A DNA stretch of 64,000 bases, taken from contig JAVYVS010000002.1 in the NCBI GenBank assembly GCA_038727515.1, positions 128,001 to 192,000 on the forward strand, given 5' to 3'. The notes beneath the pieces are model-generated. The model made no database searches and was not told the DNA's origin. It saw only the letters and a program-made list of their open reading frames with translations. The first letter of the stretch is position 1. Each line of letters opens with the position of its first letter. The position numbers were made by a program, and so were the translations under genes. Source of the DNA: Candidatus Methanomethylicia archaeon (GTDB lineage: Archaea; Thermoproteota; Methanomethylicia; Culexarchaeales; Culexarchaeaceae). Positions 45,611-61,105 of this stretch are shown here, piece after piece.

Positions 45611-48481
45611 ATGGTTTTGATAGTTATGGTAGAGCTTAAGGGTGCATTTAATCTTCTTGCATTACCAGTTAGGAAGGCTTTGGAGAAGAGGGGATTTGAT
45701 ACTCCTACTGAACCTCAGGAGAAGGCTATACCATTAATACTTGAGGGTAGGAATGTTCTATTAATTTCTCCAACTGCTTCAGGTAAGACTGAAGCTGCAC
45801 TTCTACCAATATTTAGCATGATGTGTGGATTGCATGATCCTGGTGTTAAAACGCTCTATATAACTCCTTTAAGAGCTTTAAATAGGGATTTATTGGAGAG
45901 ATTGGAGTGGTGGGGTAGGGAATTAGGTTTTAGGGTTGCTGTTAGACATGGTGATACTGAGCAATCTGAAAGGGTAGCTCAAGCGAAAATGCCTCCAGAT
46001 TTACTGATTACAACCCCTGAAACCCTGCAGATTATTTTAGCTGGTAGAGTTTTACGTAAAGGTTTATCTTCTTTGAGATGGGTTATTGTTGATGAAGTTC
46101 ATGAACTTGCTGAAGATAAGCGTGGTGTTCAATTATCCATTGCTTTAGAACGTTTAAGGAAGCTTATTGGACGTGATTTTCAAATAGTTGGTTTATCTGC
46201 AACTATAGGTAGCCCTGAGATTGTGGGTAGATTCCTTGTGGGTGTTGGTAGAAGTATTGATATAGTTAAAGTTTCAGTGGCTAAACTTATGAAGCTTAGC
46301 ATCTTCTTCCCCGAACCTAAGCATGAAGATTATGATCTTGCAGCTAAACTTTATACTCATCCAGATGTTTCAGCTAGATTGAGATTTATGAGAGAACTTA
46401 TTGAGAAATATAATTCTGTATTATTATTTGTTAATACTAGAGCTATTGCAGAAGTTTTAGCTTCTAGATTTAAAGTTTGGGATATTGATTTTCCAATTAG
46501 TGTTCATCATGGTTCATTATCTAAGCCTTCTAGAGTTGCTGCTGAAAGAGGTTTAAAGAATGGTGATTTAAAGGGCCTTATATGTACATCATCTCTTGAG
46601 CTTGGAATTGATGTAGGTAGAATCGACTTAGTTATTCAATACATGTCTCCTAGACAGGTTACTAGACTTATTCAACGTGTGGGTAGAGCTGGTCATGGTA
46701 TTGGTAGAATTTCTAATGGTGTTATTGTAACTGCAGATCCAGATGATACTCTTGAAGCTATGGCTATATGTAGAGCTGCATTAAATGAAGAACTTGAATC
46801 TGTAAAGATCCCTGAGAAACCTCTTGACGTTTTATGTCATCAAATATCTTCTTTATTGATGTATAAGAAGAGGTGGAATTTTGACGAAATTTTAGAGGTT
46901 CTTAAGGGTGCATATCCATACTCAAATATTTGTATTGATGATCTAATTGGCGTTTTGAATTATATGCATAATAGATATCCTAGACTTGCATGGATATCAT
47001 TTGAAGATAAAATTGTACTTGCACCTAAGAATAGTAGAAATGTGTATGAATACTTTTTTGAGAATCTATCTATGATTCCAGATGAAAAGAAGTATTTAGT
47101 GATTAATACTGATGATAATATTCCAATAGGATTTCTAGATGAAGTTTTTGTTTCTGAATATGGTGATCCAGGTAGGAAATTTGTTTTTAGAGGTAGTTTA
47201 TGGAAGATAAGGGAGATTGTTGGTGATAGAATATATGTTTCTCCAGATAATGATCCAGTTGGAGCTATTCCAAGCTGGGTGGGTGAAGAGATTCCAGTTC
47301 CCTATGCTATTGCTCAAGAAGTTGGATGGATTAGAGGTTATGTTGCATCTAAAATTAATTCTGGAGCTTCCATAGATGATATCATATCTGATTTAAAGGG
47401 TAAATATCCAATTGAGAAGGAATCTCTTAGGAGGGCTTTAGATCATATCTTTGAACATGTTAAGAGGGGGTTGCCAGTTCCTTCTGATAAGATTGTTACT
47501 TTAGAGAAGTGGGGTGAACTTATAATTTTAACAACACATCTAGGTTTACTTGCAAATAGAGCTTTATCTAGAATTCTCGGTGATGCTATGTCTGAATTTT
47601 TGGGGCATTCAGTAGAAATTCAAGAAGATCCATATAGGGTTGTTGTAAAGGCTTCTGAAGATATTAGTTTAAATGATGTTATTGAAATTTTAAAGAAGCT
47701 TAGTGAATCTAATGTTAGAGATTTATTGATTAAATTGGCTGAGAGATCTGGATTGTTTAAGTATAGGCTTATACATGTTGCTAGGAGATTTGGAGCTTTA
47801 TCTAAGGATATGGATGTTGCTAGTATGGGTATTCATAGGTTTATAGAGCTTTTTAAGGGTTCAGCTGTTTATGATGAAGCTTTAAAAGAGTATTTATCTA
47901 TGGATGTGGATGCTGATAGAGTTCAATCTTTCTTGAAGGAATTATTCTCTGGAGTTAGAGAGTTAAAATCCTTTGAAACAAGTGATTTATCACCTATATC
48001 TAGAGTTGGATTAGAGAAGATTTCTATGAGGAGTGAGATAATACCTCCTGAAAGATTGAGGAAAGTTTTAATTGAAGCTACTAAAGCTAGACTCCTAAAT
48101 GAAGTTAGATTCTTTATTTGTACTGAAAATTGGGATTGGTGGAAGCCTATTAGGATAAAGGATTTAAGTGATGAAATCAGATGTGAAGTTTGCGGTTCAA
48201 AATTTGTTTCACCATTAGATGTGGATGAGAGGATTTTGAATAGTATAGTTAGTAAACGTGGTTCTAAACTTAATAGTGATGAGAAGAGAATTGTTGAAGA
48301 AGCTTTAGAGAATGCAGAATTAATAGCTACTTATGGTAAATTGGCTGCAATAGCTCTTGCGGGTAGAGGTGTTAATGCTGGGAGTGTTAAGTCAATTCTT
48401 GAATCTTTTAGAAATGATTCAGATGCATTTTATGAAAAGATTATGGAAGCAGAGAGGAAAGCTTTAAGAAGAGGATTCTAA
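45611..48481 (+). CDS. lhr: Lhr-family SF2 helicase (paralog 2)
   Basis: SPTASGKT, PLRALNRD, DEVH, SAT, HHGS, SSLELGID, QRVGRAGH; C-terminal CTEN...CEVC. Confidence 0.93.
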   Translation: MVLIVMVELKGAFNLLALPVRKALEKRGFDTPTEPQEKAIPLILEGRNVLLISPTASGKTEAALLPIFSMMCGLHDPGVKTLYITPLRALNRDLLERLEWWGRELGFRVAVRHGDTEQSERVAQAKMPPDLLITTPETLQIILAGRVLRKGLSSLRWVIVDEVHELAEDKRGVQLSIALERLRKLIGRDFQIVGLSATIGSPEIVGRFLVGVGRSIDIVKVSVAKLMKLSIFFPEPKHEDYDLAAKLYTHPDVSARLRFMRELIEKYNSVLLFVNTRAIAEVLASRFKVWDIDFPISVHHGSLSKPSRVAAERGLKNGDLKGLICTSSLELGIDVGRIDLVIQYMSPRQVTRLIQRVGRAGHGIGRISNGVIVTADPDDTLEAMAICRAALNEELESVKIPEKPLDVLCHQISSLLMYKKRWNFDEILEVLKGAYPYSNICIDDLIGVLNYMHNRYPRLAWISFEDKIVLAPKNSRNVYEYFFENLSMIPDEKKYLVINTDDNIPIGFLDEVFVSEYGDPGRKFVFRGSLWKIREIVGDRIYVSPDNDPVGAIPSWVGEEIPVPYAIAQEVGWIRGYVASKINSGASIDDIISDLKGKYPIEKESLRRALDHIFEHVKRGLPVPSDKIVTLEKWGELIILTTHLGLLANRALSRILGDAMSEFLGHSVEIQEDPYRVVVKASEDISLNDVIEILKKLSESNVRDLLIKLAERSGLFKYRLIHVARRFGALSKDMDVASMGIHRFIELFKGSAVYDEALKEYLSMDVDADRVQSFLKELFSGVRELKSFETSDLSPISRVGLEKISMRSEIIPPERLRKVLIEATKARLLNEVRFFICTENWDWWKPIRIKDLSDEIRCEVCGSKFVSPLDVDERILNSIVSKRGSKLNSDEKRIVEEALENAELIATYGKLAAIALAGRGVNAGSVKSILESFRNDSDAFYEKIMEAERKALRRGF

Positions 48482-48537
48482 TCTTCTAAATGCAAATATT
48501 TAATTAAATGGATTCAAATTATAGTTTGGTGTAATCT

Positions 48538-48801
48538 TTGGATGATGTAAGTTTAAAGGAGGCTGTAATGGAAAAGCTGAAGGAGGTAATAGATCCAGAG
48601 GTTGGTTTAAGTATTGTGGATATGGGTTTAATTAAGGATGTATCCATAGTTTCTGAAGGAAAAGTTAAGATTAAGATGAGTTTAACAGTTCCATCTTTCA
48701 TGTGTCCCTTAGCTAGATATCTCATTCAAAATGTTAAAATAGCTGCTGAATCTGTTCCTGGAGTTAAGGAAGTTGAAGTAGAGTTGATAGAGCCATTTTA
48801 A
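48538..48801 (+). CDS. DUF59 / MIP18 / SufT metal-sulfur cluster assembly factor
   Basis: LKEVIDPEVGLSIVDMGLI, MSLTVPSFMCPLA, VPGVKEVEV. Confidence 0.92.
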   Translation: MDDVSLKEAVMEKLKEVIDPEVGLSIVDMGLIKDVSIVSEGKVKIKMSLTVPSFMCPLARYLIQNVKIAAESVPGVKEVEVELIEPF

Positions 48802-48835
48802 CATCATTAATTTAAATTTGAGTTTCTAATATTTT

Positions 48836-51634
48836 TTGGTGTTTTTTCTGTCAATTAATTTAATACATGAATCCCTAAAACCACATTTATTCAAAGTTTT
48901 TACTCCCATTCAAGAGATCGCTATCCCTAGAATTTTAGCTGGTGAAGATTTATTATTGATTAGTCCTACTGGTGGAGGTAAAACTGAAGCTGCATTTATA
49001 CCAATTCTAAGTTTATATCTAGATTTTAAAGATAAATTTGGTATTGTCCCTGGAATTCACATCCTATACATAACTCCACTTAGAGCTTTAAATAGGGATA
49101 TTCTTAAGAGGATGAAGAATTGGTGTAACAAAGTTAATGTGGGAATTGATATTCGTCATGGTGATACACCATCTTCTATTAGACGTTTACAACTTAAGTA
49201 TCCTCCTGAAATCCTAGTTACAACCCCTGAAACTCTTCAAGCTATTTTACCTTCAAGTGGTATGAGGAATTGGTTGAAAACCGTTAAATGGGTTATTATT
49301 GATGAAGTTCACAATCTAATTAAAAGTAAGCGTGGTATTCAGTTATCCATAGCCTTAGAACGTTTAAAGCTTATCTCAAGTAAATTTCAATTAATTCTAC
49401 TTTCAGCTACAGTTCCAAATTCAGATTATGTTGCTAAGTTTTTTGGAGGTAATGTTAAAATTGTTGTTGACCCATCTATTAAACCCTATGAATTTCATGT
49501 AGAAAATCCATTTCCATCACAATCTGATTTTGAGTATAGTGTTAAGTGGATGTGCACCCCAATAGTTGCTTCTAGGATTAGGTATATGATTGATTTAATT
49601 AATAATTCAAGATCTACCATTATATTTGTTAATTGTCGTGAATATGCTGAATACATTAGTAGTAGGCTTAGAATTGCTGGTTTAGATGTTTATTCTCATC
49701 ATAGCTCTCTCTCTAGGGAAGTTAGAGAAATAATTGAATCTAAATTTAAATTTGGAGAGTTAAAGTGTATTGTTGCTACATCTTCTCTAGAACTTGGTAT
49801 AGATATTGGTTCTGTAGATTTAATAATTCAATATCTATCCCCAAGGCAAGTTTCCACACTTATACAACGTGTAGGTAGAAGTGGACATTTTATCGATAAG
49901 GTTTCTAGAGGTTATATCATTTGTAGTGGTTTTGATGATGTTATGGAAAGTATGGTTATTTGTAAGATGGCTTTAAATGGTGAATTGGAAGATTTATTTA
50001 CCCATGAAAATGCATTAGATGTTTTAGCTCATCAAATTGTTGGTTTAGCTCTTGATATGGGTGCAATTAGCGTTGTTGATGCATATAATATTATTAGGAG
50101 AGCTTATCCATATAGGAATCTTGATTTTACATCCTTCTTAAAAGTTTTAGATTTTACTTCTAATTTGGGTTTAGTAAAATTTGATGATGAATTCATACGA
50201 CCATCTAAAAGTAGTAGGAAGTATTATTATGAGCATCTATCAACTATTGTTGAAGAAATAAAGTTTCCAGTGAAATTGGAGTCTACTGGTGAAGATCTAG
50301 GTTTTCTAGGTGAAGACTTCTTTTCTGAATATGCTAGACCTGGAGTTAAATTGATTTTACGTGGTAGACCTTGGATTATAAGTAGGATTAGTGATTTTGA
50401 AGTTTATGTTAATCCATCATCTGATTATATGGCTGCTATACCTGGATGGGAAGGTGAAGTTCTACCTACACCTAGGAAGATAGCGTTAAAAGTTGGTTCT
50501 TTAAGTGGTAGGATATATGATATGTGGATTAAAGGTGCTTCAATTGATGATATAACTTCTAATTTATCTATGGAATATCCATTTGGTTTTAATGCTCTTA
50601 AATCTGCAGTTAAATATTTTATTGATTACTTGAATATGGGTTATCCACCACCAACAGATGATAGTATTGTTATAGAGTCTTTTGATAGGTTTATTGTAGT
50701 ACATTCATGTAATGGTCATGGTGTAAATAGGAGTTTAGCTAAGATTATTAGTGCATATTTAAAGGAGAAGTTTAATGTTAATTGTATATTTAGAGTTGAT
50801 GCTTATAGAATTCTCTTTATGGTTCCTGAGGGTATTGATGGTAAGATTATAGGTGAGGTTATATTAAATTTAAATTTTGAAGACGCTTTGAAATTTCTAT
50901 ATCTTAATGTTGATCCATATATTATTAGACATGTAGCTTTGAAATTTAATGCTATTCCACGTGGAATGTATTATAAGACAACAAGCTACTTAATACATTT
51001 ACCACAATACTTTGCTAATACTCCAGTTTATGATGAAGCATATAGATTTGAACTCGTAGAGCATTTTGATTTTAATGGTTTAAGGGATTTCATAAATTCC
51101 TTAAGAAATAACTCTATACATGTACATATTCTAGATAAATCCAATAATCCATCAATTCTTGCTCTTCCAATAATTGAAATAGGTGATTTACTATCATTGA
51201 CAAGTGAAGAATATTTTGCCAATACTATATTTCATAAAGTTGTAGATTTATTATGTATGGATTGTTTAAAGATTTGGAGAGTTATGGTTAAAGATGTATC
51301 TGAACCTATAAATTGTCCTTATTGCAATTCCAAAAATATATCATTGATTAAATGGCGTATTCAAGAAGTTTTAAAGGTTCTTGAGAAATTTAAATCTAAC
51401 AATACTCTAAGTGATGATGAGGAATATCTACTCGCTTATTGTAAAATGTCATCTGATTTAATATCTATCTATGGTAAGAAGGCCATTATAGCTTTAGCTG
51501 TTAGAGGGATAGGTCCTTTAACAGCCTATCAAATTTTAGCTAAAATGCATAAAAGTTTAAATGATTTATTTAAGGATCTTATGGAGGCTATGAAGGAATA
51601 CATGGAGACTAGAGAATTTTGGAGTGAAAAATGA
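48836..51634 (+). CDS. lhr: Lhr-family SF2 helicase (paralog 3)
   Basis: SPTGGGKT, PLRALNRD, DEVH, SAT, HHSS, SSLELGID, QRVGRSGH; C-terminal CMDC...CPYC. Confidence 0.93.
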   Translation: MVFFLSINLIHESLKPHLFKVFTPIQEIAIPRILAGEDLLLISPTGGGKTEAAFIPILSLYLDFKDKFGIVPGIHILYITPLRALNRDILKRMKNWCNKVNVGIDIRHGDTPSSIRRLQLKYPPEILVTTPETLQAILPSSGMRNWLKTVKWVIIDEVHNLIKSKRGIQLSIALERLKLISSKFQLILLSATVPNSDYVAKFFGGNVKIVVDPSIKPYEFHVENPFPSQSDFEYSVKWMCTPIVASRIRYMIDLINNSRSTIIFVNCREYAEYISSRLRIAGLDVYSHHSSLSREVREIIESKFKFGELKCIVATSSLELGIDIGSVDLIIQYLSPRQVSTLIQRVGRSGHFIDKVSRGYIICSGFDDVMESMVICKMALNGELEDLFTHENALDVLAHQIVGLALDMGAISVVDAYNIIRRAYPYRNLDFTSFLKVLDFTSNLGLVKFDDEFIRPSKSSRKYYYEHLSTIVEEIKFPVKLESTGEDLGFLGEDFFSEYARPGVKLILRGRPWIISRISDFEVYVNPSSDYMAAIPGWEGEVLPTPRKIALKVGSLSGRIYDMWIKGASIDDITSNLSMEYPFGFNALKSAVKYFIDYLNMGYPPPTDDSIVIESFDRFIVVHSCNGHGVNRSLAKIISAYLKEKFNVNCIFRVDAYRILFMVPEGIDGKIIGEVILNLNFEDALKFLYLNVDPYIIRHVALKFNAIPRGMYYKTTSYLIHLPQYFANTPVYDEAYRFELVEHFDFNGLRDFINSLRNNSIHVHILDKSNNPSILALPIIEIGDLLSLTSEEYFANTIFHKVVDLLCMDCLKIWRVMVKDVSEPINCPYCNSKNISLIKWRIQEVLKVLEKFKSNNTLSDDEEYLLAYCKMSSDLISIYGKKAIIALAVRGIGPLTAYQILAKMHKSLNDLFKDLMEAMKEYMETREFWSEK

Positions 51635-52102: not shown

Positions 52103-52369
52103 TCAACTACTAAATAGTTTATTTAAAATATCTCTTAACCTTTCTTCATCTTTAACATTTTTAAATAGTATTTTCCCAGTTCTAAATACGTTTACTTCCA
52201 CATCTTCAAAATTCCCCTTCATATATAATCCGCCTAAATCAATTAGATTATCTATTTTACCTTTAATTCTATTTATTGCATCTATTACTGCATCCATCTT
52301 TAATACTACTATGTAATCAGCATTTTTACCACATGCTCTTATTACTTGTTTAACGTATTTATCCATCAT
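52103..52369 (-). CDS. Small protein resembling a stand-alone ThiF/MoeB C-terminal (TBP-like) domain
   Basis: ACGKNA near the N-terminus, [18 protein letters not shown]; coupled to sufS. Confidence 0.5.
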
Positions 52370-53616
52370 TAGGCTATATCCTCCAAATCCATTAATACTT
52401 TAATCATTTCATCAATTTCCTCCTCAGTATTATATAGGTAGTAACTTGCTCTTACACTTCCATTTTCTGCTTTAATTATTTGATGTATTGGTTCTGCACA
52501 ATGTAATCCACTTCTAACAGCTATACCATACTGGTCTAGTATTAATGCTGTTTGATGAGGATCTAAACTTCCAATATTGAATGTAATTATTCCAGCTCTT
52601 TTCTCAGCATTTCTTGGACCATATATTTTTACTTTTTTAATACTTTCTAGTTCCTTTAATGTTTTCTCTACAAGTCTCTTTTCATGCATCATTATGTTTT
52701 CCAATCCTATTCTCATTAAATATTTTGCTGCTTCTCCAAGCCCTATTGCACCAGCTATATTTGGCGTTCCAGCTTCAAACTTTTCAGGGCCTTCAATCCA
52801 GTGTATTTTGCATATTCCTTCATCTTGTATCCATTTAACATTTCTTATGGTTCCCCCTCCACTTATTGTTGGTTCAATTCTTTTTAGTAAATCTTCTTTA
52901 ACGTATAATACACCTATTCCAGAGGGTCCAAGCATTTTATGTCCACTGAAGGCTAAGAATTCGCAATCTATATCTTTTACATTTACTGGCATGTGTGGTA
53001 CTGATTGTGCAGCATCTATTAATGTTGTTACATCTTTTTCATGAGCTATTTTAACTATTTCCTTTACATCATTTATTGTTCCTAATACGTTTGATACATG
53101 TGTTATACTTATTAGTCTAGTGTTTTTGGTTATTAGATTTGGTATTTCTTCGGTTTTCAGTGTTCCATCGCTATTTACCCCTATAAATTTCACTTTTATA
53201 CCCTTTATTTCTGATAATGTTATCCATGGAGTTATATTGCTATGATGCTCCATTAATGAGGTAATAACTTCATCTCCCTTCTTTAGATTTCTAATAGCCC
53301 ATGTATATGCCACCATATTTATTGCTTCTGTAGTATTTTTTACGAAGATAATCTCCTTTGTTTTCGCATTTATTAGTTTAGCTATGTTTTCTCTAGCTTC
53401 TTCATATAATTCTGATGCTTCTTGACTTAATGTATGTATTCCCCTATGTATATTTGCATAACTTTTCGTGTAGAATTCCATTATTTTGTTTATTACTTGA
53501 ATTGGTTTTTGTGATGTAGCTGCATTATCAAAGTATATGAGTTTCCTACCATTCACTTCTCTTTCAAGTATTGGGAAATCCTTTCTTATCTCTTTTACAT
53601 TTAACATTTCTTTCAC
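52369..53616 (-). CDS. sufS: Cysteine desulfurase, group II (SufS/CsdA)
   Basis: YFDNAATSQKP, ANIHRG, EHHSN, FSGHKMLGP, EAGTPN, VRSGLHCA, VRAS. Confidence 0.95.
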   Translation of the reverse strand: MKEMLNVKEIRKDFPILEREVNGRKLIYFDNAATSQKPIQVINKIMEFYTKSYANIHRGIHTLSQEASELYEEARENIAKLINAKTKEIIFVKNTTEAINMVAYTWAIRNLKKGDEVITSLMEHHSNITPWITLSEIKGIKVKFIGVNSDGTLKTEEIPNLITKNTRLISITHVSNVLGTINDVKEIVKIAHEKDVTTLIDAAQSVPHMPVNVKDIDCEFLAFSGHKMLGPSGIGVLYVKEDLLKRIEPTISGGGTIRNVKWIQDEGICKIHWIEGPEKFEAGTPNIAGAIGLGEAAKYLMRIGLENIMMHEKRLVEKTLKELESIKKVKIYGPRNAEKRAGIITFNIGSLDPHQTALILDQYGIAVRSGLHCAEPIHQIIKAENGSVRASYYLYNTEEEIDEMIKVLMDLEDIA

Positions 53617-53676
53617 TTCAAATTCTTATTAGGAATATTTTTATTTAATTATTACTATTGTTATTATGGTGTTATC

Positions 53677-54903
53677 TTGAGTGAAGTTAAACGTGATGCT
53701 AAAGATTTACTTAAAGCTCATGGAGCTCCAATTAGACAGGTTTATTTGGATTCTGAAAATTCTGGTTTAATATTTCCTGAAGCTATTGAAGATATGGTTA
53801 AATGTTATACAGTTTTTGGTTATGGCCATCCATCAATTACACATAAAGTTGGTTGGGAGACCTATGAAGTTTTAATGAAGTCTTCTGAAATTATTTCTAG
53901 AGCTTTAGGTTGTAGTTCTGATGAGATTTTATATTTACATAGTGGTACAGAAGCGAATAATTTGGCAATTTTAGGTTTAGCTAAAGCTCATGGTAAATCT
54001 AGGAGGAAGATAATTGTATCAAGTATTGAGCATTTAAGTGTAATTCATACTGCTGAGGATTTGGTTAAGTATGGTTTTGAAATCGTTAAAGTTCCAGTGG
54101 ATAATGAGGGATTTGTTAATCCAGACATATTATCTTCAAATCTTGATTCAAATACTTTAATGGTTAGTATAGGTTTTGTTAATCATGAAATTGGAACTAT
54201 ACAGGATTTAAAGGGTTTAGTTGAAGTGGTTAAGGATTATGATGAAGGAATATTCTTCCATACTGATGCTGTTGACGCTTTTGGTAGAGTTAAATTTAGT
54301 GTTAAAGATTTAAATGTTGATTTAGCTAGTTTCAGCAGTCATAAAGTTTTTGGACCTAAAGGTGCTGCATGCCTCTATGTTAAGAGTGGTGTAAATCTTG
54401 AACCAATAATCTTTGGTCAACTTAGTACTCAGAGGTTTTGGCCTGGTTTAGAAAATGTTCCTTCAATTTCAGGTTTTGCTAGAGCTGTGGATATCATGAT
54501 TTCAAATTTCGATGATTTTAATAGTAGGATGAGCAGTTTTAGAGATATGTTGATAAATGGAGTTTTAAGTACTGTGGATAATTGTATTCTTAATGGTCCT
54601 ATGGGGGTTAAACGCGCTTCAGATAATGTTAATTTAAGCTTCTTGTATTGTGAAGGTGAAGCTCTAACTGTAGAGCTTAGTTTAAGAGGTATATATGTTT
54701 CTAGTGGTAGCGCATGTACAAGTAGAATTCTTCAACCAAGCCATATATTATTGGCTATTGGAAGGAGATATGAGGAAGCTCATGGAAGTATATTGATGAA
54801 GGTTACACCTTTTCATACCATTGACGATATAAGGTATGTTTTAGATAATATTCCAGAGGCTGTTAATAGGATTAGGTCTATAAGCCCATTTAAAGGTGAT
54901 TGA
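53677..54903 (+). CDS. iscS: IscS/NifS-like group I cysteine desulfurase homolog (divergent)
   Basis: SGTEANN, SSIEH, SSHKVFGPKG, SSGSACTS; several consensus positions altered. Confidence 0.85.
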   Translation: MSEVKRDAKDLLKAHGAPIRQVYLDSENSGLIFPEAIEDMVKCYTVFGYGHPSITHKVGWETYEVLMKSSEIISRALGCSSDEILYLHSGTEANNLAILGLAKAHGKSRRKIIVSSIEHLSVIHTAEDLVKYGFEIVKVPVDNEGFVNPDILSSNLDSNTLMVSIGFVNHEIGTIQDLKGLVEVVKDYDEGIFFHTDAVDAFGRVKFSVKDLNVDLASFSSHKVFGPKGAACLYVKSGVNLEPIIFGQLSTQRFWPGLENVPSISGFARAVDIMISNFDDFNSRMSSFRDMLINGVLSTVDNCILNGPMGVKRASDNVNLSFLYCEGEALTVELSLRGIYVSSGSACTSRILQPSHILLAIGRRYEEAHGSILMKVTPFHTIDDIRYVLDNIPEAVNRIRSISPFKGD

Positions 54904-55402
54904 ATTGTCCAGTAGAATTCCACTAATATATTCACCTAAAGTATTAGAGTTATTTAAGAATCCAAAGAATCTAGGTAGAATGGAGGATGCTGATACACAT
55001 GCTACTGCAGGTAGTCTTGCATGTGGAGATATGATTGCAATATATATTAAATTGAGTAGTGATGGTAAAACCATTGAGAAGGCAAGTTTTGAAAGTTATG
55101 GTTGTGCAGCTAATATTGCAGCTGCAAGTATAATGACTGATATGATTATAGGTAAGAGTCTTGAGGAAGCTTGGAAGATTAATTGGAAGGATATATCTAA
55201 TGAACTTGGAGGTTTACCCAGCGTTAAATATCATTGTGGTATTCTAGCTGTGGGAGCTTTAAGGAGGGCTATTAGAAAGTATTTTGAGGATAAGGATAAA
55301 CCTTCATGGCTTCCAAGGGATTTAACTCTTGAAGAAAAACATGCAATTGAAGAAGAGGAATTGATGGAGCGACTTTCAAAAAAGTTTAGTTTAAATGGAT
55401 GA
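54896..55402 (+). CDS. iscU: Fe-S scaffold IscU/NifU-N with C-terminal extension
   Basis: YSPKVLELFKNPKN.G, ACGD, GCAANIAAAS, LPSVKYHC. Confidence 0.93.
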   Translation: MIELSSRIPLIYSPKVLELFKNPKNLGRMEDADTHATAGSLACGDMIAIYIKLSSDGKTIEKASFESYGCAANIAAASIMTDMIIGKSLEEAWKINWKDISNELGGLPSVKYHCGILAVGALRRAIRKYFEDKDKPSWLPRDLTLEEKHAIEEEELMERLSKKFSLNG

Positions 55403-56418: not shown

Positions 56419-57156
56419 TTATATTAGTATTAGGGTTAATGACGTTGCAACTATCCCAGTTAGATATATTCCATCAAATGTTCCAGCTCCACCTATACTA
56501 ACCATTGGTGCCCCAATTTCACTTATCTTCCCAATATTCATTAAATCTGCTCCTATCAATGTTCCAAAAATTCCACTTACATATGCTATTATTGATGGGT
56601 TACATTTTGGAGGTATTAAAGCAAGTATTATTGAAATTATTGCTGCTGAAATTGGAGGTATAAATCCAGGGGTTACAATTCCAAATCCAGGTATAATCCT
56701 AGAATATCTATTTACAATAATTGAAACTATAAGTATGGATAAGACTATTTTCATTAGAGATATCTGGGGGTTTATTGATGTTTTCATGATCGTTTGAATA
56801 AGTATGTATATTGATATTAATATGGGTATTAATGCTCCACCAATATTTATTGCTATTACTGTTCTCCTCTCTTTTAATCCTATGGTTGGTAGAAACCATC
56901 TTATACCAAATATTTCAATCTCTCTATAAATTAATCCATAGTCAATCGTCTTTACACTTGTTAATGGTATATTAATCATACTCCCAATAAGTGACATATA
57001 TAGTGCTGCTAATGCCAATTGTGGGGGGATCATTAATGCTTCAGTGAATATTTGAAGGGAGCTTAATGCGATTAAACTAACCATCAATGTCATTAATATT
57101 AAGGTTAACATGTAGTTCCATGTTGTAGGTTTATAGACTATACCTCTCCTATACAA
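56419..57156 (-). CDS. DUF1614 membrane protein
   Basis: GSMINIP, IAINIGGALIP, GTLIGADLMN, SIGGAGTFDGIYLTG. Confidence 0.9.
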   Translation of the reverse strand: MYRRGIVYKPTTWNYMLTLILMTLMVSLIALSSLQIFTEALMIPPQLALAALYMSLIGSMINIPLTSVKTIDYGLIYREIEIFGIRWFLPTIGLKERRTVIAINIGGALIPILISIYILIQTIMKTSINPQISLMKIVLSILIVSIIVNRYSRIIPGFGIVTPGFIPPISAAIISIILALIPPKCNPSIIAYVSGIFGTLIGADLMNIGKISEIGAPMVSIGGAGTFDGIYLTGIVATSLTLILI

Positions 57157-57295: not shown

Positions 57296-60283
57296 GTGGG
57301 ATTGATGAGTTTGCGTAAATCTATTGGTGTTATTGTTGGCTCCCCCTCAACCTACAATTTTGAATTTAAATGTTTTGATGTTGTTAGAGTTAATGATTTT
57401 GTTGAAGTTTTTCATGATGGTCGTTGGCATGTATTATTTGTTAATAGTCTTAGACGTGATGGAGATGTTATTTATGCATCATGTACATGCCTTGGAAAAC
57501 CTTCTGATACCCCATTTAAAGCTGGATTAAATGTTTACCCTGCTTCTGAAGCAAATATACGTAGTGTTTTAGGTTTAACTGCTGATTATTCTAAGTCCAT
57601 ATATCTTGGTTTACTCAAGAATTATAATGTTAAAGTCTATATACCTATTGATAGATTGAATCGTATATTCATTGTTGGTAAACCTGGTTCTGGGAAGTCT
57701 TATACTGTTGGTGTTTTTATTGAGGAGTTTTTAAAGAAGAATATTCCTGTTTTAATTATCGATGTTCATGGTGAATATTCAAGTTTTAAAGTTGCAGCTA
57801 AATCTGGATGTGAAATTTTCGGTGTTGAACCTAAAAGTTATATTGATCAGATTGTAGAGTTTGGTGATAAGAGGTTTAGTCCAGCTGCAAATATAGATAT
57901 ATCTTTTTTAAGTGAGTTATCCGTTGAAGATCTCGTTTTAACTGGTAAATGTGTTATCATCAATTTGAGGGGGATTGATTTAGAGAATCAAATTTCCATA
58001 GTTGCTTCTATTGTTAGTAAACTTTTAGATGCAGCTATTAATAAGAAGATTTCACCATTCTATTTAGTTGTAGATGAAGCTCATAGATTTATTGGTAGAG
58101 AGAAATCTGAATCTCAAATGATTTTGAGGCGTTTTTCACAAGAGGGTAGAAAGTTTGGTGCAAATTTAATTGTTGTTTCTCAGAGACCTCAATTACTGGA
58201 TACTACCGTTAGAGGTCTTAGTGGTACTTGGATTATCCATAGACTTTCAGATCCCAATGATATATCTATAGCCGTTGAAAGTGGTGGTTTAGGTAGAGGT
58301 TGGGAGGATAATATCGTTTGGCTTGATGTAGGTGAATGTATTGTTACTGGTGAAGCTGTTGATAAAATACCATATGTTGTTAGAGTTAGATGTAGAGAGA
58401 CTATGCATGGTGGTGCAGGTTTTAACCCCTTGGATTATGTTTCTGAAGATGCCTTGAAAAGTGCTGAATTAAAATGGAAGAATTTAATGAAGCTTGAATA
58501 CATAGTTAAACCTACTAAAACCTTAGCTAAACCTAAAATCTCTTCACTTATAACACAATACTATCTACCAGTTAAATTTAGTTTGGAATACTTCTCTTCA
58601 AATCTTAAAACTAGATTTCCATTTAAATTTGATTTTAGCGATTTAAAGTTGAATTATTATCCTGCCTTAGAAATTAAAGCTTCAATAATGGTTAAACGTA
58701 ATAAACCTAATTTAGAGTTTACTGATGAATATAAGGTTTTTATACCATTGGTTGATGAATCTTCTGAACTTGATTTTTCACCTAGAGAAGCATACTACAT
58801 AAAAGATTTTGTTGAAAGCGATCTTTCATCTTCATCTGCAAATTTTGAAAATGTAATTTATCATTCACCTAAAATTGATATTTCCAGTTTAAATGCCTAT
58901 GAAAAATTTGTAAATGATTTTAAAAAGTTTGTTTCATTTAAAATATCATATAAAATCTATTATTCAACGAAATTCAAAATTTATTCTAATTATAATGAGA
59001 GTTTAGAGAGTTTTGTTAATAGGCTTAGGAAGATTAGTAGTGATCTTTTTAATGAAGCTTCTCTCAAACTTATGAATAAATATAATGAGAAGATTTCTAG
59101 GCATGAGAGGATTTTAAAGAATTTAAAGGATGAAATTAAGGTTAAAGTTCAATCTGCAAAAAGGCTTTTATCTGATATTAATGAGTTAAAGGGTAAAATT
59201 AAGGGTTTGGATCCAAGTTCTAGAGAGTATATTTCTACAAATTCTAGAATTCAAAGTTTAGAGGAAAAACTTTTAAAATTGAATAAGATGATTTCTAATT
59301 CTAATGCTGAATTAGAGCGTAGGGAGAAGGCTATTAATGAGCTTAAGAGGGAATTGAATGATAAATTGAAGAAGTTGAAATCCGATTTTGATGATTTAGG
59401 TGAAATAAAAACTTTGAGTTTATCTTTAAATAAACGTGATGTAAATGTGGATTTCACTAGGATTATTTGGATTCCAATATTTAATGGTGGTTTAAAGATT
59501 TCTAATGGGATTTCTGAGAGGATTTTGAATTTTGAGTGGAATGGTTATAATGGGCTTGGGGTTTATGGTAGATGTGAATCTTGTAATTCTACAATTAATG
59601 TTTTAGATTCTTTAAATCTATGTAGTATATGTCTCACAGTTCTATGTCCAGAACATGTTTTTGAATGTAGTGTTTGTGGTGCTAAAATATGTTCTGATCA
59701 TATGTTTAAATGTGATATCTGTGGTAGAATTTTATGTGTTAATGAAAAATCGTATAATTGTAGTATTTGTGGTGCTAAAATTTGTTCTAATTGTGTTAAA
59801 TATTGTGTAGATTGTGGGGATGAAATACCCTATTGCAGTAAACATGTGAGTATTTGCAATTATTGTGGGAAAGTTTACTGTGATAAACATTATAATGAAC
59901 ATTTAGTTTCTTGTGGGGTTTGTGGTAAAAGGATTTGTGGAGAATCTATTGAGAATTGTAGTATTTGTAATAAGCCTCTATGTAATGATTGTATTATTGA
60001 GTGTAGTAAATGTGGGAAGATTGTTTGTAGAGATCATATGTGGAGTTGTTCAATATGTGGTGTAAAGATGTGTATTAATGAGGATAGACATATTTGTAGT
60101 ATATGTGGTAGAAACATATGTAGTAAGCATTCTTATAAGTGTCCTTCATGTGGTAGGGAAGTTTGCACTGAGCATATTAAAACTTGCCCAAATTGTGGTA
60201 GAAGAGTTTGTGAATCATGTATAATAACTGTTAAACGCCTATTTAGGTATAAGACTGGATGTAGATTTTGCCTTAAACCCTAA
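57296..60283 (+). CDS. HerA/FtsK-like (DUF87) ATPase fused to a coiled coil and a tandem Zn-finger array
   Basis: HAS-barrel-like N-terminus, GKPGSGKS, IIDVHGEY, VVDEAH, EGRKFG, SQRP; long heptad region; Cys/His repeats. Confidence 0.88.
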   Translation: MGLMSLRKSIGVIVGSPSTYNFEFKCFDVVRVNDFVEVFHDGRWHVLFVNSLRRDGDVIYASCTCLGKPSDTPFKAGLNVYPASEANIRSVLGLTADYSKSIYLGLLKNYNVKVYIPIDRLNRIFIVGKPGSGKSYTVGVFIEEFLKKNIPVLIIDVHGEYSSFKVAAKSGCEIFGVEPKSYIDQIVEFGDKRFSPAANIDISFLSELSVEDLVLTGKCVIINLRGIDLENQISIVASIVSKLLDAAINKKISPFYLVVDEAHRFIGREKSESQMILRRFSQEGRKFGANLIVVSQRPQLLDTTVRGLSGTWIIHRLSDPNDISIAVESGGLGRGWEDNIVWLDVGECIVTGEAVDKIPYVVRVRCRETMHGGAGFNPLDYVSEDALKSAELKWKNLMKLEYIVKPTKTLAKPKISSLITQYYLPVKFSLEYFSSNLKTRFPFKFDFSDLKLNYYPALEIKASIMVKRNKPNLEFTDEYKVFIPLVDESSELDFSPREAYYIKDFVESDLSSSSANFENVIYHSPKIDISSLNAYEKFVNDFKKFVSFKISYKIYYSTKFKIYSNYNESLESFVNRLRKISSDLFNEASLKLMNKYNEKISRHERILKNLKDEIKVKVQSAKRLLSDINELKGKIKGLDPSSREYISTNSRIQSLEEKLLKLNKMISNSNAELERREKAINELKRELNDKLKKLKSDFDDLGEIKTLSLSLNKRDVNVDFTRIIWIPIFNGGLKISNGISERILNFEWNGYNGLGVYGRCESCNSTINVLDSLNLCSICLTVLCPEHVFECSVCGAKICSDHMFKCDICGRILCVNEKSYNCSICGAKICSNCVKYCVDCGDEIPYCSKHVSICNYCGKVYCDKHYNEHLVSCGVCGKRICGESIENCSICNKPLCNDCIIECSKCGKIVCRDHMWSCSICGVKMCINEDRHICSICGRNICSKHSYKCPSCGREVCTEHIKTCPNCGRRVCESCIITVKRLFRYKTGCRFCLKP
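59573..60280 (+). repeat. Protein-level tandem array of 13 CxxC-x4(6)-Cxx[H/C/E/S] units
   Basis: e.g. CSVCGAKICSDH, CSICGAKICSNC, CSKCGKIVCRDH, CPSCGREVCTEH; flanked by lone CESC and CRFC. Confidence 0.9.
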
Positions 60284-60717
60284 ATTGTTATCTCTTCTTC
60301 CCTCAATACTTCTGAAGCCATCTTTATACAACTTGAAGGTATTCTCCTCCTCTTCAAAGCATTTATGTATGCAATTTTTGAAGAACAATGTATTGATTTT
60401 ATCCTATAATATATATTTGGGTCTTCCATTTTCACATAAACCCATTTAACAATTTTATTCCTTCCAATGTCTATATCATATTTTATAAACAATTCTTCTT
60501 GAACATTAGATTCTTCAACAACTTCAAGTTTAAATCCTTCAATTACAAGATATCTTCCCTCAATCTTATACAATATCTTGTTTTTATGGAGCTTTTTAAG
60601 CATTTCAGCCTTCTTTTTAACGTCATGTACTGGTAGTTCAATTACTAGTGCCGCCAGTCCATCTTGCAAAACTTTCACCACTCTCTCTCTACAATTTTTA
60701 ATATATAAATCCCTCAC
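60280..60717 (-). CDS. Hypothetical protein
   Basis: 145-aa ORF filling the gap, GTG start, no motif recognised. Confidence 0.6.
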   Translation of the reverse strand: MRDLYIKNCRERVVKVLQDGLAALVIELPVHDVKKKAEMLKKLHKNKILYKIEGRYLVIEGFKLEVVEESNVQEELFIKYDIDIGRNKIVKWVYVKMEDPNIYYRIKSIHCSSKIAYINALKRRRIPSSCIKMASEVLREEEITI

Positions 60718-60820
60718 TCATAGTATTGTGAGGGGTATCTGAAAGTATTCATAGTAAACTATTTATTATCTCATGTAACCTTTATTTTAGCATTAGTTTA
60801 ATGCTCTTTTTGGTGTAAAG

Positions 60821-61105
60821 GTGGGTTTAATGAATTATAGGAAGTTAATGGCTTTAATGAAAGATCTAAAGATGCTGGTATGCGAAAAATGTAATTCAAA
60901 ATTGGATTTCTATAAACTCAATATTGATGATTCTAATGAAGAATATGATGTCAATGTTTGCATGATATGTTTTAAATGTAAATTGCAATATGACTTTAAG
61001 ATTATTAACCCCGGTGTTATTGGTTTAGTTTCCGTAAGGGAAATTAAAGCTTCATCTTGGGATGAATTTTTGAAATCCATGGAGGAAGAGGAAATTGAAG
61101 ATTAA
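60821..61105 (+). CDS. Small Zn-ribbon protein with acidic tail
   Basis: CEKC...CFKC; overlaps the next gene. Confidence 0.7.
   Translation: MGLMNYRKLMALMKDLKMLVCEKCNSKLDFYKLNIDDSNEEYDVNVCMICFKCKLQYDFKIINPGVIGLVSVREIKASSWDEFLKSMEEEEIED

Follow-up and report, generated by a model that had tools for sequence, protein, structure and literature searches.

A stretch of 64,000 nucleotides from a Candidatus Methanomethylicia archaeon (GenBank assembly GCA_038727515.1, contig JAVYVS010000002.1, positions 128,001 to 192,000), referred to as the window in the following, contains at positions 57296 to 60283 a gene whose predicted product joins a HerA-type DNA motor to a tail of about 600 residues. The results indicate that the family combining a HAS-barrel HerA, a shoulder domain, a coiled coil and an array of about 14 predicted metal sites is new, and that it is vertically inherited as a single-copy, core-like gene. 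With confidence a little short of even, a function as hexameric DNA translocase is proposed, the arms of which would bind DNA or chromatin in the course of a DNA transaction of the housekeeping kind, such as resolution, segregation or repair, and not in virus defence.

Domain architecture of the window protein

The complete chain was modelled with AlphaFold2 as a single-chain prediction based on an alignment of 41 sequences. The model showed a mean predicted local distance difference test (pLDDT) value of 85.7 and a predicted template modelling (pTM) score of 0.47, so that the individual domains are reliable, whereas their mutual arrangement is not. Along the chain, a barrel (residues 11-82), an ATPase (100-375), an alpha/beta domain (420-557), a helical hairpin, a set of strands (704-749) and a zinc region (760-995) follow each other. 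The corresponding features of the gene are located in the window as listed below.

57296..60283, plus strand: whole gene; 995 codons open from GTG at 57296, stop codon at 60281-60283
57317..57589, plus strand: N-terminal HAS-type beta-barrel, residues ~8-98 (AlphaFold2 strands 11-82; family mean identity 0.44)
57590..58435, plus strand: compact HerA/FtsK-type RecA-like ATPase core, residues ~99-380 (Pfam, NCBIfam, PADLOC and profile matches; mean identity 0.64)
57677..57700, plus strand: Walker A GKPGSGKS, residues 128-135 (G128, K129, G131, G133, K134 and S135 invariant)
58067..58084, plus strand: Walker B VVDEAH, residues 258-263 (D260, E261, A262 and H263 invariant)
58142..58192, plus strand: EGRKFG (residues 283-288, candidate arginine finger) and SQRPQ (295-299), family-invariant and aligned to the 4d2i motifs
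58436..58540, plus strand: linker with helix 384-397 and a flexible part at 401-409 (pLDDT below 50; AlphaFold2)
58541..58990, plus strand: shoulder domain (alpha/beta), first of two halves, residues ~416-565; beta strands of 12-25 residues (AlphaFold2; mean identity 0.29)
58991..59401, plus strand: antiparallel coiled-coil hairpin, helices 570-635 and 643-699, about 9-10 nm (AlphaFold2)
59402..59563, plus strand: shoulder domain, second of two halves, residues ~703-756; W725 and P727 invariant, together with a W-N-x-x-N-G-x-G motif
59564..60280, plus strand: zinc-type array, residues 757-995, with 15 CxxC knuckles and 13 Cxx[H/C/E] knuckles

The ATG at 57305 is probably the true start codon (992 amino acids), since the identical database protein P0002 is 992 amino acids long; the ESM Atlas sequence begins at residue 4.

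Sequence and model together place the window protein in the HerA clade of the FtsK-HerA superfamily, with intact barrel and ATPase core. The Pfam model DUF87/HerA (PF01935) matched residues 102-213 (E-value 6e-17; 62.9 bits compared to a cut-off of 23.2 bits), HerA models of PADLOC and NCBIfam matched residues 110-375, and the NCBIfam model CedD gave a partial match. Furthermore, the family profile retrieved Sulfolobus HerA 4d2i (E-value 5e-32), with EGRKFG and SQRP aligned residue for residue, and also Thermococcus HerA 9x1l. Searching the whole model with Foldseek resulted in HerA structures on top (4d2i, 9x1m, Sir2-HerA, DUF4297-HerA; best E-value 3e-21), where the alignment to 4d2i comprised ~480 columns at a template modelling score of 0.61-0.64 on the target. 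The ATPase core terminates in an invariant R-x-R-E-T-x-H-G-x-x-G-F-N-P motif.

Barrel, RecA-like core, Walker A and B, EGRKFG and SQRP are thus shared with repair HerA (Sulfolobus 4d2i; Thermococcus HerA-NurA 9x1l/9x1m). In contrast to these proteins, the window protein carries the tail of 600 amino acids, lacks the helical insert of ~100 amino acids known from Sulfolobus HerA, and is encoded without NurA, Mre11 or Rad50 nearby. The repair-HerA equivalogs NF040937 and NF040819 scored 84 and 77 bits, compared to cut-offs of 800 and 970 bits, with the core alone matching, which argues that the protein is not a canonical repair-HerA equivalog. FtsK was not found among the Pfam and NCBIfam matches, where no dedicated FtsK search was made, and the AlphaFold2 model contains no membrane helix or other membrane segment.

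Behind the motor, three long strands at residues 704-749 rejoin the alpha/beta domain at 420-557. Because of this return, the coiled coil is interpreted as an insertion in a single shoulder domain. A separate AlphaFold2 model of residues 410-758 reached a pLDDT of 91.4. The shoulder domain had no match in Pfam, and no database model fits it; searches of the middle model with VIA-align (wide) and Foldseek returned coiled-coil hairpins only (IpaB, dynein stalk, Smc, EmrA, CT398/HP0958), since the model included the coiled coil, and ESM Atlas matches to the middle domain and the zinc array were unnamed or below 0.9. Invariant residues of the shoulder are mostly P, W, G, L and F, accompanied by few polar ones (R, S, N) and by no D, E, H or K. 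No nuclease was recognised in the middle domain by these searches, in which the coiled coil dominated the fold matches, and a cryptic one may be present.

The arm is distinct from that of Rad50 and SMC proteins. Its head is of the HerA type and wholly N-terminal, without an ABC ATPase, the tip of the hairpin carries no CxxC hook (no cysteine occurs in residues 636-642), and the metal sites form a separate array of 240 amino acids after the hairpin has returned to its base.

This array is exceptionally rich in potential metal ligands, the last 245 residues containing 46 cysteines and nine histidines. Thirteen full CxxC-x4-Cxx[H/C/E] units together with CxxC pairs at both ends (residues 760 and 989) add up to 28 half-sites, corresponding to about 14 predicted metal sites. 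In the model, the array consists of short beta-hairpins and short helical turns. All Pfam zinc-finger models remained below threshold, e.g., zf-C2HC5 (16.9 bits, cut-off 25.8), Zn_Ribbon_1 (16.4, cut-off 25) and zf-AN1 (15.3, cut-off 27.9). Within the family, the cysteine ligands are nearly invariant (45 conserved cysteine columns in the alignment), the median net charge of the array is +7, and lysine or arginine occupies the position after CxxCG (unit position +5) in 51% of the units.

Most of this architecture had been described in the original prediction, which was derived from the sequence alone. Its barrel and compact ATPase with Walker A/B, EGRKFG and SQRP were recovered by Pfam, profile alignment, AlphaFold2 and Foldseek, its coiled coil of more than 100 amino acids corresponds to the two modelled helices, and its 13-unit array with more than 40 cysteines was confirmed, extended by the two end pairs. 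The alpha/beta 'linker domain' exists as well, but it is not a linker on its own, as it forms one domain with the strands following the coiled coil. The statement that the architecture matches no characterised protein also held: neither a paper describing it nor a characterised protein possessing it was found in the literature.

A conserved, vertically inherited family

In total, 41 full-length homologues (~990-1030 amino acids, 99-100% coverage, 34-78% identity) were identified, which are labelled just 'DUF87 domain-containing protein' and originate from Methanomethylicia/Verstraetearchaeota, Nezhaarchaeales and Bathyarchaeota. The term orphan, originally chosen for the protein, is therefore no longer appropriate. 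In a survey of 401 sampled Thermoproteota genomes, using the C-terminal 596 residues as query, the gene was present in 59 genomes. Taxonomic families are given by their labels in this survey: full-length frames occurred in f1 (4/4 genomes), f2 (1/1), f3 (2/4), f5 (28/32), f7 (9/10) and f9 (1/1), and in another Thermoproteota class in f17 (8/8), f32 (three genomes) and f34 (two genomes). None were found in the 56 genomes of f10, nor in f19, f20, f24 and many other families of the survey. The architecture thus defines a conserved family of the class Methanomethylicia and of three families of another class, as established by the search for phyletic spread that had been suggested, while the tail recurs elsewhere (see below). 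When 1.8 billion representative proteins were scanned in full, only approximately six clusters at 50% identity were obtained for the full-length family.

Exactly one full-length copy was present in most of 41 related genomes. In a maximum-likelihood tree of 30 orthologues, all seven taxonomic families were monophyletic, with six label changes representing the minimum possible. Conservation differs by region, mean identity amounting to 0.64 for the ATPase, 0.44 for the barrel and 0.26-0.29 for the shoulder, the coiled coil and the non-cysteine positions of the array. The number of array repeats, for which variation among strains had been proposed as a check, is nearly fixed, with 18 CxxC in almost all members despite 34-78% identity. 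One genus of f7 encodes shorter orthologues of 944-951 amino acids (G018:C10:18941-21721 and G026:C1:969548-972319), in which ~45 residues around positions 800-845, comprising about three zinc units, are missing; the array hence tolerates a shorter form.

The fusion of motor and tail was recovered in independent assemblies from two other studies, where a contig of 7561 nucleotides covers positions 58053-60800 and a contig of 2285 nucleotides covers 57725-60009. Since both contigs span the ATPase-tail junction and 41 homologues are colinear, the assembly artefact that the original prediction had considered was rejected. At least nine studies yielded hot-spring metagenomes in which the source organism occurs. 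A viral origin was likewise rejected: IMG/VR viral contigs contained no relative, and the sole phage match was a terminase P-loop. Metatranscriptome contigs covered the gene in parts only (57304-58769, 59775-60043 and 60233-60431) and are regarded as a weak hint at its transcription, DNA carry-over being possible.

Occurrence of the tail in other proteins

The scan of representative proteins also detected the tail behind a HerA_C-type (PF05872) ATPase in the proteins P0122 (981 amino acids; metagenome-assembled genome (MAG) of the Asgardarchaeia) and P0081 (1279 amino acids; Anaerolineae MAG). BLASTP alignments to both (E-values 1e-46 and 3e-57) span shoulder, coiled coil, W-N-x-x-N-G motif and zinc array. 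The whole tail is alike, whereas the ATPase is of a different HerA subfamily that lacks the N-terminal barrel, and the arrays of these fusions are shorter (13-17 CxxC). Two Thermoproteota genomes (G304 and G348) likewise encode HerA_C-type tail fusions. Here, they are organised as a two-gene unit (L046:8750-14399 and L047:3796-9551), in which a protein of 958-989 amino acids with CarboxypepD_reg/Ig-like and long coiled-coil parts is encoded first, followed by the HerA_C-type ATPase of 900-917 amino acids with coiled coil and shorter zinc array.

A further context was found on three haloarchaeal plasmids, which carry a complete SNF2 ATPase gene, a stand-alone tail protein gene (676 or 1095 amino acids) and an Mrr-type endonuclease gene in this order:

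L035:6982-11510: cassette of the Halocatena salina plasmid NZ_CP096023
L036:5584-11620: cassette of the Halorhabdus tiamatea plasmid pHTIA, NC_021913
L034:7265-11184: cassette of the Haloferax lucentense plasmid pSVX82-3, NZ_CP104744

The middle protein matched window residues ~380-973, i.e., shoulder, coiled coil and array (E-values 2e-22 to 4e-20), and had no match in Pfam or PADLOC. The SNF2 ATPase is nearest to DrmD, BrxH or ZorD and the endonuclease matches the nuclease end of ZorD, so that the cassette looks like a split ZorD into which an arm protein has been inserted. It differs from the window gene in that the tail is a separate polypeptide, the motor belongs to the SF2/SNF2 type, a nuclease is present and the location is plasmid-borne. 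The annotation of the Haloferax record lacks the middle gene on that strand, and a gene for a PbeA-like DEAD helicase lies divergently upstream of the cassette in two of the three plasmids. Moreover, the Thermoproteota genome G234 encodes a 522-amino-acid protein (L049:4087-5655) composed of an N-terminal zinc ribbon, Mrr_cat and a C-terminal array of 29 cysteines matching window residues 881-993 at 35% identity. Judged from these alignments, the tail is a portable module, and each of its contexts comprises a double-strand DNA translocase and/or a DNA nuclease.

The closest relatives of the motor that lack the tail are Asgard proteins of the P0046 type (~564 amino acids; ~40% identity over 390 amino acids). 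They share the barrel, the ATPase and, following the core, the H-G-G-x-G-F-N-P-L-D motif, and they have a coiled coil at the C-terminus, but neither shoulder domain nor zinc array, and belong to another phylum. The corresponding gene (~500-570 amino acids; loci L050-L072 and L073-L082) is single-copy in 40 of 121 sampled Asgard genomes and has no nuclease neighbour. Its neighbours are metabolic at 12 Promethearchaeota loci, and in six Asgard genomes the Snf7 genes are located on contigs other than that of the HerA-coiled-coil gene. A weak Vps22/EAP30-like gene was found at a distance of two genes in seven Asgard genomes, as part of a conserved block that also encodes a zinc-ribbon and coiled-coil protein as well as a Band-7 protein.

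Genomic context and paralogues

The window has a G+C content of ~30%. In agreement with the original prediction, both neighbours of the gene are located on the opposite strand:

56419..57156, minus strand: DUF1614 membrane protein, upstream neighbour, position kept only in f1 and f3
60280..60717, minus strand: open reading frame (ORF) of 145 amino acids, convergent downstream neighbour, overlapping the last four bases of the HerA-like gene

The DUF1614 gene is outside the system. The 145-amino-acid ORF had no match in Pfam and PDB searches and adjoins the HerA-like gene only in f1 and f3. Beyond it, an ORF of 94 amino acids (60821-61105, plus strand) with two CxxC pairs probably encodes a small zinc-ribbon protein; it has no Pfam match and adjoins the asparaginase gene in f1 and f3.

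The wider neighbourhood consists of housekeeping genes, including those for two class-V aminotransferases, NifU, an OYE-type oxidoreductase, DUF1614, an asparaginase, a DRG-type GTPase and two Lhr helicases. An iron-sulphur assembly cluster (window 52369-55402), composed of two divergent class-V aminotransferase/cysteine-desulfurase-type genes and NifU_N, is located 2-5 kilobases (kb) upstream, a proximity observed in f1 and f3 only and lost in f5, f7, f17, f32 and f34. Two tandem paralogues of Lhr-type large helicases (956 and 932 amino acids), separated by an ORF of 87 amino acids, occupy window positions 45611-51634 on the plus strand.

As predicted, no gene for NurA, Mre11, Rad50, Sir2 or a nuclease adjoins the window gene, and no partner nuclease or effector is adjacent in ~30 orthologous loci representing seven taxonomic families. 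The flanks comprise DUF1614 upstream and the 145-amino-acid ORF downstream in f1/f3, an Lhr helicase upstream and UppS/Trm112 downstream in f7, a homocitrate-synthase-like gene upstream and ACT-AbrB and Alba downstream in f5, and the tRNA methyltransferase TrmI downstream in f17/f32/f34. Flanking genes are conserved within families only, and hence there is no conserved partner gene. Two candidates were considered and rejected: the Lhr helicase is adjacent only in f7, lies ~6 kb off in f1/f3 and was unseen within ~8 kb in f5, f17, f32 and f34, whereas TrmI, a housekeeping tRNA methyltransferase, was taken to reflect local gene order.

The source genome harbours four DUF87 paralogues. A canonical NurA-HerA pair is encoded on another contig than the window gene (G000 C1:26193-28842); with NurA sitting beside another HerA, the canonical repair pair exists separately. 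A second HerA-like gene (619-amino-acid frame) is divergent from a weak NurA-like gene (611-amino-acid frame; 17.6 bits, below the cut-off) at C1:367656-370540, and the fourth DUF87 gene lies at C1:638709.

Proposed function and alternative explanations

HerA is a hexameric double-stranded DNA translocase, as in 4d2i and 9x1m. To our knowledge, HerA-type pumps act with a partner enzyme in each case, in DNA-end resection as well as in several anti-phage systems. By analogy, the window protein would assemble into a HerA-like hexamer and, at the expense of ATP, drive double-stranded DNA through the channel in its centre. Six arms would project from the ring, each tipped by a mildly basic multi-zinc rod, and these rods may grip either DNA or chromatin, or else a fixed partner. 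An anchored site and the translocated duplex would be the two points between which the motor operates, presumably in a housekeeping role such as resolving, segregating or repairing the chromosome of these lineages.

Several observations weigh against this proposal. The placement of the domains relative to each other is not reliably predicted by the model, and zinc is assumed as the metal. The net charge of the array is modest and ranges from -6 to +16 across the family, so that protein binding is equally possible, and the surface residues of the tail evolve fast compared to the ATPase. Furthermore, the shoulder domain may have a catalytic role, and the plasmid relatives of the tail occupy a restriction-like cassette, pointing to conflict.

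A broader version of the proposal, which is considered doubtful as a whole, regards shoulder, coiled coil and zinc chain as a so far undescribed 'grip' module, portable between double-strand DNA motors, that was recruited separately by two HerA subtypes, by the SNF2/Mrr cassette and by the Mrr nuclease. The HerA fusion of Methanomethylicia and Bathyarchaeia-type archaea would then be a core chromosome-handling machine, namely an FtsK-like or loop-holding translocase; these organisms are taken as FtsK-less in this version.

Alternatively, the protein could be a motor of defence or conflict, a reading towards which the original prediction leaned by naming a sensor and virus-protection assays. 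With foreign DNA sensed or caught by the zinc-rod arms, the HerA ring would either pump or retain it for a nuclease from another locus, or bring about abortion of the cell, comparable to Sir2-HerA, DUF4297-HerA and 'capture' systems. Consistent with such a role, anti-phage HerA models were the best PADLOC matches (E-value 7e-33), solved anti-phage HerA complexes occurred among the structural matches, the tail module is placed between a ZorD/DrmD-like SNF2 ATPase and Mrr on the three haloarchaeal plasmids, another genome encodes a fusion of a zinc array and an Mrr nuclease, and the tail surface evolves fast. However, the PADLOC matches are limited to the shared ATPase core, and fold and motifs are what the window protein has in common with Sir2-HerA (Nezha) and DUF4297-HerA. 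The tail is different, no effector is adjacent in any of the orthologous loci, and the gene is single-copy, nearly universal in its lineages and congruent with taxonomy, i.e., it shows a core-like and not a patchy phyletic pattern. Vertical descent, housekeeping neighbours, a fixed repeat number and the lack of relatives in IMG/VR also speak against antiviral function. These features indicate that the window gene does not represent an anti-phage HerA system, and a role in defence is regarded as unlikely.

A further explanation, also judged improbable, considers the tail as a protein-docking scaffold tethering the DNA pump to the division or membrane-remodelling machinery or to a DNA-transfer apparatus, where it would act in an FtsK- or Ced/VirB4-type manner. 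It could account for the partial CedD match, for the nearest tail-less relatives being single-copy Asgard HerA proteins with a coiled coil, for the weak Vps22/EAP30-like gene in their vicinity and for the gene order in two Thermoproteota genomes, where the HerA_C-type tail fusion follows a protein with Ig-like and coiled-coil parts. On the other hand, Snf7 is encoded on other contigs in the Asgard genomes checked, the Promethearchaeota loci have metabolic neighbours, no conserved membrane or division gene adjoins the Thermoproteota family, and the model of the window protein is devoid of membrane segments.

Finally, it is very improbable that the Cys/His array mainly serves as a metal or redox device regulating the ATPase (zinc store, iron-sulphur carrier or thiol switch), since its high cysteine content and the cysteine-desulfurase-type and NifU genes upstream in the window, f1 and f3 are outweighed by the loss of this proximity in five other families, by CxxC and CxxH/C ligands (Glu in some units) in beta-hairpin and short-helix units resembling structural zinc knuckles, and by the recurrence of the array with nucleases and DNA motors.

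Possible implications for archaeal chromosome biology

Results obtained for the family describe a partner-less HerA retained throughout whole archaeal classes as a core gene in single copy, with an arm of 600 residues that belongs to a type without any database model. If, as proposed for the housekeeping translocase, this arm is a grip for DNA or chromatin, the protein would qualify as a candidate for the motor that is missing in these archaea for resolving or segregating their chromosomes. Under the same condition, the zinc-chain module would represent a new accessory common to housekeeping and restriction-type DNA motors.

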